DNA from: a phage
Length of the DNA stretch: 64,000 nucleotides
Sequence record: PZ452591.1
Direction: 5' to 3' (one strand)
The position numbers were made by a program, and so were the translations under genes. The notes beneath the pieces are model-generated. The model saw nothing but the letters and a program-made list of their open reading frames with translations. It did no database searches and was not told the DNA's origin. Of the stretch, positions 9,935-55,740 are shown in pieces; position 1 is the first letter of the stretch, and each line of letters starts with the position of its first letter.

Positions 9935-12199
9935 TCATAATTTACAGGATGAACAATCTTCAGCTTTTGGAGTTTCTATTTCATAATCATCAGTACCAGA
10001 ACCATCACGGGTATTATGATAATAGAAATTTTTAATGCCATAATACCATCCGTATAGCATGTCATCAATCATTATTGACATTGGAACCTTTCCTTTTGGA
10101 AAAATCTGCGGGTCATAGTATGTATTCGCTGAAGCTGATTGACATACCCATTTCAGCATAATAGCTACCTGTGTAAGATAAGGTTTATTACCTTTCTTAG
10201 CTAATTTCCATGTATAATCATAGAGGTCTATGTTATGCTCAATATTGGGCACGACTTGATTAAAGGAGCCCTCTTTTGATTCTTTAACAGAGACTGGTCC
10301 ACGTGGAGGCTCGATACCGTTTGTACTGTTAGAAACTTGGGAAGATGACTCACATGGCATAAGTGCTGATAATGTGCTATTACGGATGCCAAAGAGCTTA
10401 AGGTCTTCCCGCAGCGACGACCAGTCACAAACGTATTTTGGAGCTGCGATTTGGTCAATCTTTTTATTGTACCAGTCGATAGGTAATTCGCCTCGAGACC
10501 AACGAGTGTCTGAATAATATTCGCAAGGTCCTTTTTCTTTGGCGAGCTTAATGGATGCTTTAATGAGTCCATACTGTAATCTCTCAAATAGTTCATGTGT
10601 TAAATCGTTAGCATCTTCATAAGAAGCAAAGTTACTTGCCAGCCAAGCTGCATAGTTGGTAACACCTACACCGAGGTTACGACGCTTTTTAGCTTTTTCT
10701 GCTTCAGGAACTGGATATCCTTGGTAATCCAAAAGATTATCAAGAGCACGAACTTGAACTTCTGCCAATTCATTAATTTTATCTTGGTCTTGCCAGTCAA
10801 AATTATCTAGTACGAATGCAGATAACGTGCACAAGCCAATTTCAGCATCGGGGCTATTCACATCATTTGTTGGAATAGCAATTTCACAACATAAGTTACT
10901 CTGACGAATAGGTGCCTTTTCACGAATAAACGGAGTATAGTTATTCGTATTATCAATGAACTGTACATAAATCCTTGCTGTTCCTGAACGTTCAGTCATG
11001 AGCAATTCAAATAGTTCACGGGCTTTAATACGCTTTTTACGAATATTAGGGTCTTTTTCTGCTGCTTCGTATAATTCACGGAAACGGTCTTGGTCTTTAA
11101 AATAAGAATAATAAAGTTCTCCACCCATTTCATGCGGACTGAACAAAGTGATGTAATCGTTCTTTCCGAATCGTTCCATCATCAAATCATTCAGCTGAAC
11201 ACCATAATCCATATGACGAATGCGGTTTTCTTCTACACCTTTGTTATTTTTCAAAACGAGAAGATTTTCAACTTCCAAATGCCAAATAGGATAATAAGCA
11301 GTAGCAGCGCCGCCACGAATTCCACCCTGTGAGCATGATTTAACAGCAGTCTGAAAATGTTTCCAAAAAGGAATAACACCAGTATGGCGTACTTCACCCA
11401 TGCCAATCTTAGAACCTTCGGCGCGAATCATACCAACGTTAATACCAATTCCAGCGCGTTTAGAGATATATTCAACAATTGAAGCAGAAGCCTTATTGAT
11501 AGACTTCAATGAATCTCCTGCCTCAATAACAACACATGAACTAAACTGTCGAGTCGGAGTACGGCAACCAGCCATAATAGGAGTTGGCAGTGAAATCTGT
11601 CGAGTAGATACTGCTTCATAAAAACGAATAACATGTTTTAATCTATCAACAGGTTCATCTTGATGCAATGCCATTCCAATAGTCATAAATGCAAACTGTG
11701 GAGTTTCATAAATTTGACCAGTGGTTTTATCTTTAACTAGATATTTTTCTTTCAATTGCATCGCCCCGGAATAAGTAAATTCCATATCCCGCTCGTGTTT
11801 AATTTTTGATTCTAAAAATGTAATTTCTTCTGCTGAATATTTTGACAATAATTCAGGGTCATATTTACCTTCATTTACACAGTAAGAAATATGGTCAATA
11901 AATGAACGTGGTTCATACTGCCCATAAACATGCTTACGAAGAGCAAACATTAAACAACGTGCAGCTACATATTGATAATCAGGTTCTTCAACCGAAATAG
12001 AATTCGCAGCAGCCTTAATGACAATAGTCTGAATGTCATCAGTTGTCATTCCATCACGGAGATATGATTTAATATTTTCATATAATTCATAAGGATCTAC
12101 TGATGTTCCCTCAGATGCCCAAGATAAAACTTTAATAATTTTTTGTGGGTCAAAGCTCTGAGAAACACCACTACTTTTGATAACATTAATTAATTGCAT
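9935..12199 (-). CDS. nrdA: ribonucleotide reductase large subunit, 754 aa
   Basis: ATG at 12197-12199; [21 protein letters not shown]... matches recalled T4 NrdA. Confidence 0.93.
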   Translation of the reverse strand: MQLINVIKSSGVSQSFDPQKIIKVLSWASEGTSVDPYELYENIKSYLRDGMTTDDIQTIVIKAAANSISVEEPDYQYVAARCLMFALRKHVYGQYEPRSFIDHISYCVNEGKYDPELLSKYSAEEITFLESKIKHERDMEFTYSGAMQLKEKYLVKDKTTGQIYETPQFAFMTIGMALHQDEPVDRLKHVIRFYEAVSTRQISLPTPIMAGCRTPTRQFSSCVVIEAGDSLKSINKASASIVEYISKRAGIGINVGMIRAEGSKIGMGEVRHTGVIPFWKHFQTAVKSCSQGGIRGGAATAYYPIWHLEVENLLVLKNNKGVEENRIRHMDYGVQLNDLMMERFGKNDYITLFSPHEMGGELYYSYFKDQDRFRELYEAAEKDPNIRKKRIKARELFELLMTERSGTARIYVQFIDNTNNYTPFIREKAPIRQSNLCCEIAIPTNDVNSPDAEIGLCTLSAFVLDNFDWQDQDKINELAEVQVRALDNLLDYQGYPVPEAEKAKKRRNLGVGVTNYAAWLASNFASYEDANDLTHELFERLQYGLIKASIKLAKEKGPCEYYSDTRWSRGELPIDWYNKKIDQIAAPKYVCDWSSLREDLKLFGIRNSTLSALMPCESSSQVSNSTNGIEPPRGPVSVKESKEGSFNQVVPNIEHNIDLYDYTWKLAKKGNKPYLTQVAIMLKWVCQSASANTYYDPQIFPKGKVPMSIMIDDMLYGWYYGIKNFYYHNTRDGSGTDDYEIETPKAEDCSSCKL

Positions 12200-16253: not shown

Positions 16254-17159
16254 TTAAAGGTCATTCAAAAGGTCATCCAGGTCCGTGTCATCAGCACTAG
16301 ATGAACTGCCAGAGCTTGAGCTCATAAAATCATCTTCAGTTTTTGTTTTGAAGTCATCAACATTGAATGCATCCAAATCATCAGCAACTTTATCAGCTTT
16401 CTTAGCAGCAGTTGCAGCGGCACCGCCCATCACAGCAGTTCCCATAACTTGACCGAATTTAGTATTCAGTTCTTCAAACGATTTGAATTTATCTTTAGAA
16501 GTCATTTCAGAAAGGTCAACCATTTGTTCGAACAGTTCTTTCTGGAAAGATTCATCATCAATGTTTGGAATCGCAGATTGATTCAGGAATTTAGATTCGT
16601 CGTAGTTACTAAATCCAGAAACCTGTTTAACTTTCAGTACAAAGTTAGCACCTTCCCACGGGCAAGTTACATCAACCGGAGTTTCACCCATTTCGACATC
16701 AACCGCAATCATTGCATTGATTTTATCCCAGATTTTCTTACCGAAACGGTATTTAAATACTTTACCTTCGTTTTCTGGAGCAGCTGGGTCTTTTACAACA
16801 AGAATATTAGCCCAGTAAGAAGTTTTACGTTTAACAAGACTGTACTCTTTATTGTCAGTGTTGTACAGATCATTTTTACTGATGTATTGACATACTGGGC
16901 AAGAATCGTAATCACCATGGGTAGATGAACATGTTTCAATATACCATTTACCATTTTTCTTGAAACCGTGATTTACAAGAATTGCGAATGGTGCTTGTTC
17001 ATCATTTTTAGACGGAAGAAAACGAATTACTGCTTGACCGTTACCCGCATTATCGAGTTTCAGTTTCCACTCGCCTTTATCTTCAGAAGAAAAACCTTTA
17101 TTGCCATTCAGTTTAGCCATTTGTGCAGCAAGTTCAGCAGTAGATTTACGTTTAAACAT
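16254..17159 (-). CDS. 32: single-stranded DNA-binding protein gp32, 301 aa
   Basis: ATG at 17157-17159; matches recalled T4 gp32 including acidic C-terminal tail. Confidence 0.95.
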
Positions 17160-52483: not shown

Positions 52484-52943
52484 TTGTTTTACCTAAAACA
52501 ATAGTAGGAGCATTGTCAAATTTATGAATTTTTAGCAAATTTGGATTTAAATTATTCCATAAAGAGGTAATAAAATATGATAGCGCACTTTCGTCCGTAA
52601 TTATAAATTTATTTCCTTTATCTATTTTCCAATCATGTATTGAATCATATGAATAGAAGGATAACGGTTTATTATTATAATATGCTTCAGCAACATCAAT
52701 ATAGTTAGATTTAGTAAATGCTTGAATTGCCATAAATGGAGAATTTTGTACAGTTTCAATAATTCCGATCTTTTTAAGTTTTATTTCAACATCTTCTGGA
52801 ATTGGCATTGAAATAAAATCTTCTACTAGATACATATTATTGTCATATCTTTTATCAATCATTACTGCTACGGTAATTGGAACATCCTTGACAAACGCCA
52901 TACTAATACTATTGATAGACATTTCAAACAAAATTGCTTCCAT
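52458..52943 (-). CDS. hypothetical protein, about 161 aa
   Basis: in-frame ATG at 52941-52943 with GAGGA Shine-Dalgarno; track ORF starts at upstream TTG. Confidence 0.5.
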
Positions 52944-52951
52944 AATTTTCC

Positions 52952-53293
52952 TCAATCACAAGATGTAGATGAACAACTAGAATCACAAGAACTTCCACAT
53001 GAATCGCCCGTCCATACATGAACAGGAACATTAGTATCATATGAATCAGAACTAGACTGTGTATTCTGCGTATTAGATGATGTAGTAGGTGTTGACCAGC
53101 GCCAAGGATTTTTATAATATTCTTGGGCTTCTTCATAAGTCATAGTAACTGCTTCTACTGTTCCATCTCCCATATAAACATATTCAACTACAGTTAAAGG
53201 AAGGTAGTCATTTGAAATAGGAACTACACCTTCTCCAGGAGTCGTAGAGAAAAAATCCGTAAAGAAACTTTTAAACCAATTAAAGATAAACAT
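52952..53293 (-). CDS. hypothetical protein, 113 aa, with Ser/Thr-rich linker and Cys/Ser-rich C-terminal tail
   Basis: C-terminus ...[19 protein letters not shown] read from the translation; ATG at 53291-53293. Confidence 0.5.
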
Positions 53294-53499
53294 TACAAAA
53301 AGCCTCTTTTGAATTCAACTTGCTTCTCACCATAATCATATCGAATTTCTGCATTAAATTCGACAGAACCATCTGCGTACATCATAAATGAATGCACAAC
53401 AACTTCTGTAGACCATGGTTGTAGTTCATATTTCTTCATTACATGTCGTGAAATGATAATATCTAAATCTTCATTTGGTTTAATCCAGCGATTTAACAT
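53293..53499 (-). CDS. hypothetical protein, 68 aa
   Basis: ORF track; ATG at 53497-53499. Confidence 0.5.
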   Translation of the reverse strand: MLNRWIKPNEDLDIIISRHVMKKYELQPWSTEVVVHSFMMYADGSVEFNAEIRYDYGEKQVEFKRGFL

Positions 53500-53571
53500 A
53501 GTGCTCTCCTCTATAAGATAATTTTATTATACCATACTCATTTTGGAAAGTAAACCGTTTAAATGAAAAAA

Positions 53572-53589
53572 GGACTCCCGAAGGAGTCC
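53572..53589 (-). terminator. intrinsic terminator after soc, GGACUCC-UUCG-GGAGUCC
   Basis: identical hairpin to 528-545; A-run on plus side; just past the soc stop. Confidence 0.6.
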
Positions 53590-53595
53590 TTGAAT

Positions 53596-53924: not shown

Positions 53925-54443
53925 TTAATAGCCTCGATCTTGACGTGCGAAATTTTCGGCATTTTTCAGATAATAAAGTTTAAAGATTTCTTCAGCTGAC
54001 ATTCCAAGAGCAATAAATTTATTCATGAAAAAGTGAAATTGGTCAATCAGTTCAAATTTAATTTCAAGCTGATCTTCGGGAGATAAATCTTGAATTTTCT
54101 TGGATTGCATTTCAGAATAACGTTTCTTCCAAGGTTTCCATACAGCAGAAGCTTCTTTTTCACCATTACTCATACCACCAAGAGAAGTATATAGCTCGCG
54201 AGTTTCGTCTGCGATATAATCGTCTTGGTTTCGCAGCCAAGCAAGAACTTCTCCTGCGGTTTCAAGTGAATCAGGATGACGATTTGTTTCTGGCTTATCA
54301 TTAGCCAAACGAATCTGTAAAGACCGCTGCATATCAAGCATAACCTGCAATGGGTCTTTTTCATCACCGAGAATATCCCGGTATTCATTTTGAGCTTTAT
54401 CAACACCTTCGATCAAATGAGCGCATTCATTAAAGTGAGCCAT
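53925..54443 (-). CDS. 56: dCTPase/dUTPase gp56, 172 aa
   Basis: start set at ATG 54441-54443 (MAHFNECAHLIEGVDKAQNEY...) with AAAGGAAAA Shine-Dalgarno; the track ORF extension begins at GTG and covers the promoter. Confidence 0.85.
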   Translation of the reverse strand: MAHFNECAHLIEGVDKAQNEYRDILGDEKDPLQVMLDMQRSLQIRLANDKPETNRHPDSLETAGEVLAWLRNQDDYIADETRELYTSLGGMSNGEKEASAVWKPWKKRYSEMQSKKIQDLSPEDQLEIKFELIDQFHFFMNKFIALGMSAEEIFKLYYLKNAENFARQDRGY

Positions 54444-54477
54444 TATTTTTCCTTTCAATTCATGGGTTAGTAGATTA

Positions 54478-54502
54478 ATTATACAATAAATATATAAAGC
54501 AA
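54478..54502 (-). promoter_or_regulatory. MotA-dependent middle promoter (MotA box TTGCTTTA, 11 nt, -10 TATAAT)
   Basis: minus strand ...ATTGCTTTATATATTTATTGTATAATTAA... about 35-60 nt upstream of the gene 56 ATG. Confidence 0.5.
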
Positions 54503-54514
54503 TAAGGAGGACAT

Positions 54515-54715
54515 ATGGTACAAAAATTAATGGCACTTGTTGATGCCATAAAAGGTAATAAGAAACGTATAGCTTTTACTATTTCTGCTATGGTAGGAAT
54601 TTTACTCTGGAACTTTATTTTATCACCTGTTGCAATTGCTCATGGTGTTAATATTCCAGTAGTTACTCTTGATACATTCGTAGATTTAGCATTTGCTTTA
54701 GTTGGGTTAATTTAA
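54515..54715 (+). CDS. small hydrophobic ORF, 66 aa, plus strand, in the 56-61 spacer
   Basis: ATG at 54515 with strong AAGGAGG Shine-Dalgarno 4 nt upstream; two predicted transmembrane segments; opposite strand to all neighbours. Confidence 0.3.
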   Translation: MVQKLMALVDAIKGNKKRIAFTISAMVGILLWNFILSPVAIAHGVNIPVVTLDTFVDLAFALVGLI

Positions 54716-55740
54716 ATCTTAGCATATTTAGATAGCCGCATTTTAGCCATCAACCCCTGTGCAATATTATTTTTCATATATTCCATAATTTGTTCAGTGG
54801 TTGCACCTTCCTTTCTAATCATATCATTAACATCTTTTGATTTCCAGGGAGATTTATCCCAAAACATAACCCTTTCTCCTGCATCAACTAATTTAGTCAT
54901 TCGCTTAATAGTGTCAGGGTGACGAGGTTCATTATCTAAGACCCACACACGTCTATCTTTAAATGGAACAACTTCTAGGTCTAATTGACCACCCGTAATA
55001 GCTATACCATTTTCAATAAAAAGTGAATCTATAGGTCCTTCTAGAACATATACATCACCATCTTTAACTCGTTCTACTCCATAGATTTTTGTTGCCTCAG
55101 GATAAGCTTTGATGGTGATATATTTTTGAGGAGCATCTTTCTTTAATGCACGCCCTTGAAAAGACTCAGCTTTTCCATTAGCATTATAAATTGGAATAAC
55201 AAGACGAGGCTCAGGTATTTCCTTTTTATATGTTCCCGGTGCTATACTATTAACTAATTTAGGCCATTCAGTTGTAAACCAAAGATATTTCCATTTATCC
55301 TTTGGAATACAACGAGCTTTTACGTATTTTATAATTGGATGGTCTTCCGCCAGTTTATCTAATCTAACACATGACGGAAGAGATTTAATTATTTTCTTCT
55401 CAGGTTGTTTAGGAAGTTCTTTAAGTTTTTCTACTGGACGACTTTTACCTTTTTCTTTTCTTATTTCAAAGATATACTCACGATATAAATCAGGTTCAAA
55501 CTCCTTTAAATATATTCCGATTGGTGCATGATAGTTACAGTTATAACAATGAATATTTCCTTCATTATTATCACCATAATACCATCCACGGGCTTTATTT
55601 TGGTCGGTTTTTGAATCTCCACACACTGGGCATCTAAACCGCAATTTAAAAGTTGAACTATTATTTACTTGTGTGAATTTAGGTAAATGAGCTAATGCAC
55701 GGTATGCAAACTCATTATCAATCCAAGGTATTGATGACAT
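54712..55740 (-). CDS. 61: DNA primase gp61, 342 aa
   Basis: ATG at 55738-55740; zinc-ribbon CPVCGDSKTD...CYNCNYH and Toprim region; matches recalled T4 gp61. Confidence 0.92.
   Translation of the reverse strand: MSSIPWIDNEFAYRALAHLPKFTQVNNSSTFKLRFRCPVCGDSKTDQNKARGWYYGDNNEGNIHCYNCNYHAPIGIYLKEFEPDLYREYIFEIRKEKGKSRPVEKLKELPKQPEKKIIKSLPSCVRLDKLAEDHPIIKYVKARCIPKDKWKYLWFTTEWPKLVNSIAPGTYKKEIPEPRLVIPIYNANGKAESFQGRALKKDAPQKYITIKAYPEATKIYGVERVKDGDVYVLEGPIDSLFIENGIAITGGQLDLEVVPFKDRRVWVLDNEPRHPDTIKRMTKLVDAGERVMFWDKSPWKSKDVNDMIRKEGATTEQIMEYMKNNIAQGLMAKMRLSKYAKI

Follow-up and report, generated by a model that had tools for sequence, protein, structure and literature searches.

Identity of the mrh.1 locus

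We here analyzed an open reading frame (ORF) on the minus strand of a 64,000-nucleotide stretch of phage DNA (sequence record PZ452591.1, in its full length hereafter called the window), which is located at positions 52952-53293 and encodes a protein of 113 amino acids (aa). A first-pass annotation, made from the sequence alone, had singled it out as encoding a small protein with a Ser/Thr-rich linker and a Cys- and Ser-rich tail; the ORF is indeed present on the minus strand, and translation of its 113 codons yields exactly the protein sequence that was quoted there. It is an already catalogued hypothetical gene of phage T4 and not a newly found one, with the window protein being identical to T4 Mrh.1 (UniProt P20706; gene T4p027) in 112 of 113 residues (99%) and having a single substitution, with Thr95 in the window protein and Ala95 in that of T4. 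Mrh.1 is one of roughly 130 genes lacking an assigned function in T4, the best-studied phage. What the present analysis adds is a precise signature in place of a vaguely described Cys-rich tail, comprising two invariant Cys-Asp dyads, a Ser/Gly loop and a free C-terminus, within a protein of modular architecture, and this signature is kept by selection across many T4-like genera of enterobacterial phages.

The window protein matched the Pfam family DUF7206 (PF23836) with 103.1 bits at a gathering threshold of 25.6 bits, covering model positions 1-107 of 107, and PHROG 2031 with E = 3.7e-33, with both families carrying a function-unknown label. With regards to membership, the score above threshold, the orthologous locus and the N- and C-terminal motifs all agreed in placing the protein with DUF7206 and T4 Mrh.1, with both family motifs (N-terminal [WF][LI]Kxx... 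and C-terminal SCDS...SCD) found in the window protein. At the DNA level, the surrounding 1.5-kb region matched 505 phage records, nearly all of them Tequatrovirus, at 80-99% identity. The gene and the segments of its product are located in the window as follows.

52952..53293, minus strand: mrh.1 coding sequence (CDS), 113 codons plus a TGA stop codon at 52952-52954; ortholog of T4 Mrh.1, Pfam DUF7206, PHROG 2031.
52955..53014, minus strand: predicted disordered acidic tail, residues 94-113, with the family motif S-C-D-S-[GS]-S-(S/G)n-S-C-D-COOH.
52985..52987, minus strand: codon of Cys103, the Cys of S-C-D-S and the first of the two kept in the family, found in 107/110 sequences of the family alignment.
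52958..52960, minus strand: codon of Cys112, the invariant penultimate Cys, found in 110/110 family C-termini and followed by the terminal Asp113.
53015..53110, minus strand: spacer rich in Ser, Thr, Asn and Gln, residues 62-93, delimited by its ratio of nonsynonymous to synonymous divergence (dN/dS 0.34), indels of 3n length, a predicted local distance difference test score (pLDDT) <50 and alignments.
53111..53194, minus strand: predicted beta-hairpin around EYVYMGDG and a short helix, residues 34-61 (AlphaFold2, AF2, strands at 34-40 and 46-52 and helix at 53-61; pLDDT 79-88).
53249..53293, minus strand: predicted N-terminal amphipathic helix, residues 1-15 (AF2 helix at 4-15, conservation of K8 and F11, hydrophobic moment).

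A conserved two-Cys motif at the C-terminus

The tail of the window protein contains four Cys residues (C99, C103, C107 and C112), and not five as first reported. They are separated by 3, 3 and 4 residues, and D113 is the terminal residue. The tail composition, which had been called unusual, ranked first among the 90 window ORFs of at least 80 aa, both for the number of Cys within 15 consecutive residues (four) and for the content of Ser, Thr, Asp, Cys and Gly within 20 consecutive residues (19/20). The next most Ser- and Asp-rich C-terminal tail of the window belonged to a gp32-like ORF (301 aa; 16254..17159, minus strand). About 0.56 clusters of four Cys within 15 residues would be expected by chance in this pool of 90 ORFs; the Cys cluster taken alone is not beyond chance, and it is the conservation that makes the tail non-random.

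Word-indexed and single-sequence exhaustive searches returned almost only T-even copies, and a profile search was needed to reveal the family. Divergent relatives were found at loci in IMG/VR and GenBank, whereupon the profile search gave 117 cluster representatives, almost all having PF23836. As tblastn treats the tail as a low-complexity region and masks it, so that its alignments ended at residue 94, tail conservation was read from the extracted ORFs. A C-terminal Cys...Cys-[Asp/Asn] was kept in 110/118 family sequences, with 108 ending in Cys-Asp and two in Cys-Asn, and the remaining eight were truncated or frameshifted fragments. Using the 110 full-length representatives for the tail statistics, we found S-C-D-S in 107, the penultimate Cys in all 110 and the terminal Asp in 108, with Asn in the other two. 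The two conserved Cys are spaced by 5-9 residues, forming a loop that consists of 59% Ser, 22% Gly and 14% Asp, and exactly two Cys are present in 98 members. The last 30 residues lack Lys and Arg in 109 of the sequences and His in 81, and hold at least one Tyr in 108. No C-terminal extension beyond the motif was seen in any of the 110, and this strict terminal position suggests that the free carboxylate may matter.

As judged from the family alignment, which is inexact inside the low-complexity region, the two family Cys of the window protein are C103 and C112, with C99 and C107 appearing as a peculiarity of Tequatrovirus (T4-type) members that aligns with Ser or Tyr elsewhere. Conservation of the Cys spacing in homologs thus holds for the pair C103/C112, kept at 5-9 residues, but not for C99 and C107, which are of the T4 type only; a Cys-containing tail as such is kept in many Tevenvirinae genera. 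A DNA tandem repeat was not found in the tail region, and an origin of the tail by DNA slippage was rejected on that ground; the Ser codons of the tail are a mixture of TCN and AGY. The Mosigvirus form in APCEc01 (locus L031, 2405-2653) was the shortest seen, having 82 aa, with W-E-Y-I-G-D-G replacing EYVYMGDG and with the protein ending in Cys-Glu instead of Cys-Asp; as annotated, this DUF7206 CDS overlaps the upstream gene by 35 nt.

Conserved N-terminal blocks and a variable spacer

The divergent relatives share only the two ends of the protein with T4-type Mrh.1. The conserved blocks preceding the tail are the N-terminal M-[IF]-x-[WF]-[LI]-K-x-[LF]-F, followed by P-G-E-G-x-V-P-I and E-Y-V-Y-M-G-D-G-x-x-E-E-V, and within them K8 and F11 are nearly invariant and Y40, G42 and G44 invariant in the family alignments. 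The Ser/Thr-rich linker of the first-pass annotation is a real spacer, but it is lineage-specific and not a conserved feature; in other genera its place is taken by a charged, helix-forming segment that differs widely in length, and the length of the family proteins ranges from 82 to 201 aa. One member, from Escherichia phage 235Ecol030PP (P0003, 164 aa, representing a cluster of 17 sequences), combines in tandem a Ser/Thr spacer of the T4 type and a charged spacer of the Dhaka/Gapriver type, followed by a T4-type tail with four Cys, which points to recombination inside the spacer between genera.

Several degraded or unusual copies were also seen, including a frameshift into the +1 frame giving a 141-aa product (P0006), a frameshifted metagenomic copy (L008/L021; IMGVR_UViG_3300006879_000208), a match split into two pieces in Shigella phage CT01 (H82), an annotation truncated at the N-terminus in vB_EcoM-Sa45lw (P0004) and a GTG start in place of ATG in Sf23 (L040). 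These copies would fit with a dispensable gene, or with sequencing errors.

Selection on the three segments

We determined dN/dS according to Nei-Gojobori for 12 Tequatrovirus alleles, a small sample with non-independent pairwise comparisons in which the direction is clear, and found values of 0.098 for residues 1-60, 0.341 for the spacer (residues 61-93) and 0.078 for the tail (residues 94-113), with ample synonymous divergence in the tail (pS 0.19). Among these Tequatrovirus alleles, tail and N-terminal part are thus about equally constrained, with the spacer being more relaxed. Synonymous changes between TGT and TGC occurred at three of the four Cys codons, which together with the mixed Ser codons indicates that selection acts on the tail as a protein, in this reading frame. 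All indels were multiples of three and all were located in the spacer, except for a Trp-Thr duplication in RB14 just before W94. With regards to a tail possibly read out of frame, the purifying selection (dN/dS 0.08) and the exclusively in-frame indels argue for the annotated frame. A 70-aa ORF in the +1 frame (52924..53136) was rejected as a gene, being open only in close relatives and used only by the frameshifted copy P0006; in genera outside Tequatrovirus the +1 frame was not kept open.

Predicted structure

AF2 modeling of window Mrh.1 with an alignment of 58 sequences gave a mean pLDDT of 59.5, and for both AF2 models made here the pLDDT was about 60 and the predicted template modeling score (pTM) <0.3. 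The hairpin region at residues 34-61 was the only confidently folded part, and residues 70-113 had a pLDDT <50. For a divergent two-Cys member (P0014) the same plan was predicted, with a helix at residues 3-8, a long spacer helix at 55-78 and a disordered tail. According to these models Mrh.1 is modular, with a predicted N-terminal helix and beta-hairpin, a spacer free in length and composition, and a predicted disordered acidic tail. Among 16 members, the helical hydrophobic moment of the N-terminal 11-mer was 0.42-0.80 in all but one, which had 0.28, and 2% and 5% of shuffled sequences reached the observed moment; this is suggestive of a candidate helix for membrane targeting or protein docking. 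Foldseek comparison with the PDB gave only matches with E > 2, making a fold assignment impossible, and a PDB search with the family profile gave one weak match (E = 0.052) to a major capsid protein, with no match obtained for the tail peptide.

Expression signals and genomic context

The elements that precede mrh.1 in the window, all on the same strand, are the following.

53303..53308, minus strand: strong Shine-Dalgarno sequence AAGAGG, 9 nt upstream of the mrh.1 ATG and within the end of mrh.2.
53293..53499, minus strand: mrh.2, 68 aa, PHROG 1873 (function unknown), whose TAA stop codon overlaps the mrh.1 ATG (TAATG).
53526..53554, minus strand: promoter-like site of the sigma-70 type, TTTACT-17-TATAAT, preceding mrh.2 and having a TG-extended -10 element.
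53570..53591, minus strand: intrinsic terminator, comprising a 9-bp hairpin and a subsequent T run, that separates soc from the mrh.2-mrh.1 unit.

The TAATG overlap is a usual sign of translational coupling, here of mrh.1 to mrh.2. An early promoter of T4, Pe15.0, has been located upstream of this gene group (PMC6024815), and the promoter-like site found here is probably that promoter. At the position of the hairpin between soc and mrh.2, related records carry terminator annotations. Based upon the Shine-Dalgarno sequence and TAATG coupling, the promoter-like site, the upstream terminator, the early RNA class, the low dN/dS and the exclusively in-frame indels, mrh.1 is a genuine protein-coding gene. 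Mrh.2 was considered as a paralog of Mrh.1, its Y-A-D-G-S-V-E resembling Y-M-G-D-G-T-V-E, yet was rejected as such when BLASTP gave no alignment between the two; it also had a weak PADLOC match to BrxC (E = 0.0066) that is probably spurious.

The window carries a T4-type early block with primase 61, dCTPase 56, soc, two small ORFs, mrh, an srh-like gene, modA.x, modB and modA. The corresponding genes are annotated in T4T as soc, mrh.2, mrh.1, mrh and srh, and the gene order in JK38 is identical. Compared with T4T, the window region 53925..55740 lacks dam between gene 61/dam.1 and gene 56 and lacks segF between gene 56 and soc; Shigella phage JK38 shares this arrangement without dam and segF, and mrh.1 itself is untouched by the difference. 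The order soc/(small ORFs)/mrh.2/mrh.1/(small ORFs)/mrh/srh/Mod ADP-ribosyltransferases is kept in Tequatro-, Mosig-, Moon- and Kanagawavirus and in the T4-like phages of Klebsiella. In Dhakavirus Bp7 mrh is missing, and in Winklervirus neither mrh.2 nor mrh is annotated, showing that mrh.1 is retained independently of both. A divergent T4-like contig (L046, 5001-5372; Logan SRR25375751) has its DUF7206 gene between the dda helicase and dexA-like genes and not downstream of soc, and the gene can thus relocate within the early region.

DUF7206 is confined to the T4-like Tevenvirinae infecting Enterobacterales, and its genes nearly always lie in soc/mrh.2/mrh.1/mrh/srh/modB/modA, a block of early genes for host takeover. 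The hosts given in the matching records were overwhelmingly Enterobacterales, and a single-sequence exhaustive search of 1.84 billion representative proteins revealed no cellular homolog of Mrh.1. Also the most divergent metagenomic members lie within T4-like early regions, in a context that yields no functional clue. No gene for a maturase, a redoxin or a metalloprotein was a consistent neighbour at the loci inspected, and the defence and counter-defence models of PADLOC gave no match for window Mrh.1 or for two divergent members.

Published experimental data

The main texts searched for mrh.1 and DUF7206 gave nothing relevant, with the useful data being those of supplements. In time-resolved omics of T4 infection, mrh.1 (P20706) was assigned to the early RNA class and its protein was not detected, with Mrh, Mrh.2 and Srh being detected (PMC9697503, supplement). 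The tryptic peptides of T4 Mrh.1 have 8, 53, 4 and 48 residues, making the protein nearly invisible, and its absence from the T4 proteomics is therefore uninformative. Using CRISPRi-ART, mrh.1 was classified as 'Semi-Fit' (score 0.79, p 0.069) and its neighbours as 'Not Fit' (PMC11879866, supplement). By HIDEN-SEQ transposon sequencing, insertions were found at 31/31 TA sites of mrh.1, which was scored as 'Non-essential', and in the conditional comparison shown there it had no significant change (log2 -0.16), with the Bas37 ortholog behaving alike (bioRxiv 10.1101/2025.11.20.689424, supplement). The neighbouring Mrh forms a very large complex, in the description of which Mrh.1 is not mentioned (PMC8076793). 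Mrh.1 is, in laboratory E. coli, an early and dispensable accessory protein.

Possible function of the tail

As a tentative reading, which we regard as possible but short of probable, Mrh.1 would carry, joined to a docking module, a tail of thiol and carboxylate groups with which it chelates a soft metal or interacts with the metal or thiol centre of a host target. The N-terminal helix and the hairpin would serve for docking, either to the inner membrane from its cytoplasmic side or to a host protein, and the tethered tail would be the working part, acting as a 'warhead' reactive towards soft metals or thiols. Its two thiolates, together with the neighbouring Asp carboxylates and the terminal carboxylate, may chelate Zn, Cu or Fe, with the metal being either free or held in the active centre of the host target, in a role that could be early host takeover or counter-defence. 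The chelation is proposed because two thiolates, adjacent carboxylates and a terminal carboxylate all lie on a flexible loop, and two thiolates on a flexible loop is a known way to hold soft metals, as exemplified by the C-x7-C loop of CueR. The first-pass annotation had called the tail composition compatible with metal binding, and for two Cys-Asp dyads on a flexible Ser/Gly loop such binding is chemically plausible. The weak 'Semi-Fit' phenotype in CRISPRi-ART also speaks in favor of the reading as a whole.

Several results weigh against a metal-directed tail. Just two Cys are conserved, which is fewer than in typical structural metal sites, so that one chain could not by itself supply four thiolates. 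Ser, Tyr and Gly, all of them poor at binding metals, prevail in the tail, His is rare, and a conserved set of three to four ligand residues, such as CxxC pairs or Cys/His clusters, is not present in the family. Neither Pfam, which gave DUF7206 only, nor the PDB searches or Foldseek revealed similarity to a metal-binding family or a solved metalloprotein. With regards to docking, the amphipathicity of the putative membrane-binding N-terminus is only marginally above that of shuffled sequences. The published data point in the same direction, with mrh.1 being non-essential and having no significant conditional change in HIDEN-SEQ (bioRxiv 10.1101/2025.11.20.689424, supplement), the CRISPRi-ART signal being weak (PMC11879866, supplement) and Mrh.1 remaining undetected in T4 proteomics, although its tryptic peptides are hard to see (PMC9697503).

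The two conserved Cys could alternatively form a redox device, which we consider unlikely, with the tail cycling between dithiol and intramolecular disulfide and serving as a substrate, decoy or trap of thioredoxin or glutaredoxin, or shuttling reducing equivalents to a partner. A flexible Ser/Gly loop with two invariant Cys spaced by 5-9 residues, located at the very C-terminus in a tail predicted to be disordered, would suit that purpose, and the same window encodes an NrdA with a comparable Cys-pair tail (...EDCSSCKL). However, Mrh.1 has no attached catalytic domain that would require re-reduction, the Asp after each Cys and the strictly terminal position would be left unexplained, and no redoxin gene was adjacent in any locus inspected.

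Similarly unlikely, in our estimation, is a tethered pseudo-substrate or recognition peptide that, with its free C-terminus and its Tyr, Ser and Asp residues, mimics the tail of a host protein and fills the groove or pore of a host enzyme without any metal. Its target could be a protease, a kinase or a sulfur-relay protein (of the TusE/DsrC type, having an arm with a penultimate Cys). The layout of an anchor, a spacer free in length and a conserved C-terminal peptide agrees with such a function, as do the absolutely conserved terminal position and the Tyr within the last 30 residues in 108/110 members, and the confinement of the family to Enterobacterales phages suggests that the target would be specific to these hosts. 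No host protein ending in a comparable tail was identified, though, nor any cellular homolog among the 1.84 billion representatives, and the T4 type has Cys at some of the Tyr positions, which argues against a strict peptide mimic.

A more specific version of the metal-directed tail, in which Mrh.1 would be an inhibitor placed at the inner membrane by its N-terminal helix and threading Ser-Cys-Asp-COOH into a host zinc enzyme located there, so that thiolate and carboxylate ligate the catalytic metal, we judge to be quite improbable. It draws upon an analogy with small thiol-carboxylate drugs, which inhibit zinc peptidases via metal ligation. Its most attractive candidate target would be FtsH, the metalloprotease degrading sigma-32, in view of the adjacent sigma-32-related genes mrh and srh. 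If true, phages would be seen to encode a new kind of enzyme inhibitor, whose defining feature is a Cys-Asp warhead at the C-terminus.

That Mrh.1 should be a precursor like those of RiPPs (ribosomally synthesized and post-translationally modified peptides), with the Cys/Ser/Thr-rich C-terminus as an enzymatically modified core having azoline/azole, thioether or lanthionine groups, is very unlikely. The T4-type tail superficially resembles Cys/Ser/Thr-rich cores, but most members have only two Cys in a tail of Ser, Gly and Tyr, and conservation is limited to two Cys; a maturase gene, be it of the YcaO, radical-SAM, LanB, LanC, LanM or another type, was not adjacent in any of about 20 loci, as judged by annotation and Pfam, and the conserved N-terminal part is a predicted folded hairpin and not a typical leader, in a protein that is cytoplasmic and early.

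A lipid-modified tail, with an acylated or prenylated Cys anchoring the protein in the membrane, had also been suggested and is scarcely credible, since nothing beyond the presence of Cys near a terminus speaks for it, with no signal peptide, lipobox or C-terminal lipidation motif found, no Cys at the N-terminus, all Cys lying within the last 15 residues in an acidic, Ser-rich context that is not of CaaX type, and no gene for a lipidation enzyme in the neighbourhood. No C-terminal protein S-acylation or prenylation system is known in E. coli or T4. Equally far-fetched is a neutral low-complexity tail or an annotation or frame artefact, because the low complexity, the chance expectation of about 0.56 such Cys clusters, the dispensability of the gene and the occasional frameshifted copies are set against a dN/dS of 0.078 at pS 0.19, the lack of a DNA repeat, a +1 frame that is closed outside Tequatrovirus and a motif invariant across genera whose spacers are unalignable. 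The remaining probability we leave to something not considered here.

Should the tail of Mrh.1 prove to be a warhead that is directed at a metal or thiol of a host enzyme, it would represent a new mechanism in phage host takeover; otherwise mrh.1 would be an ordinary accessory ORF. The residues singled out for mutation by the present analysis are C103, C112 and D113 in the tail and W6, K8 and F11 in the N-terminal helix, and for detection of Mrh.1, which is missed by trypsin-based proteomics, another protease is needed.

Comparison with known systems

The resemblance of Mrh.1 to redox tails, membrane-targeting helices and two-Cys metal loops is by analogy only. The large subunit NrdA of class Ia ribonucleotide reductase has, like Mrh.1, two close Cys in a flexible tail at its extreme C-terminus, and this Cys pair shuttles reducing equivalents and serves the enzyme's own catalytic domain. 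Mrh.1 has no such domain, and the two proteins share no sequence homology; compared with the NrdA tail, the putative counterpart in Mrh.1 has a longer Cys spacing (5-9), an Asp after each Cys and the second Cys in the penultimate position. The NrdA-like ORF of the window (754 aa; 9935..12199, minus strand) ends in ...TPKAEDCSSCKL, being another flexible C-terminal Cys-pair tail.

DsrC and TusE have, in their C-terminal arm, a penultimate Cys on a flexible segment as in Mrh.1, and in DsrC a second Cys is located about 10 residues upstream of the penultimate one. They differ by having a conserved globular fold without similarity to Mrh.1, and there are no sulfur-relay genes near mrh.1.

At the other end of the protein, the conserved short helix, hydrophobic on one of its faces ([WF]-[LI]-K-x-[LF]-F in Mrh.1), may be likened to the membrane-targeting helices of MinD, FtsA and MreB and to small phage regulators with an amphipathic helix such as lambda CIII, with the hydrophobic moment being similar to those of MinD, FtsA and MreB. 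In Mrh.1, however, this putative membrane-binding helix forms the N-terminal part of a larger protein of modular build, which has no sequence homology to the four.

Metallochaperone tails (SlyD, HypB) are rich in His and Cys, whereas in those of Mrh.1 Ser, Tyr and Gly abound and His is scarce, and the loops of the CueR type are carried by a folded dimeric domain with no homology to Mrh.1. What Mrh.1 would have in common with the loops of MerR-family CueR (C112-x7-C120) and with these metallochaperone tails is a short, flexible loop that carries two thiolates and lies close to the C-terminus among acidic and Ser/Asp residues.

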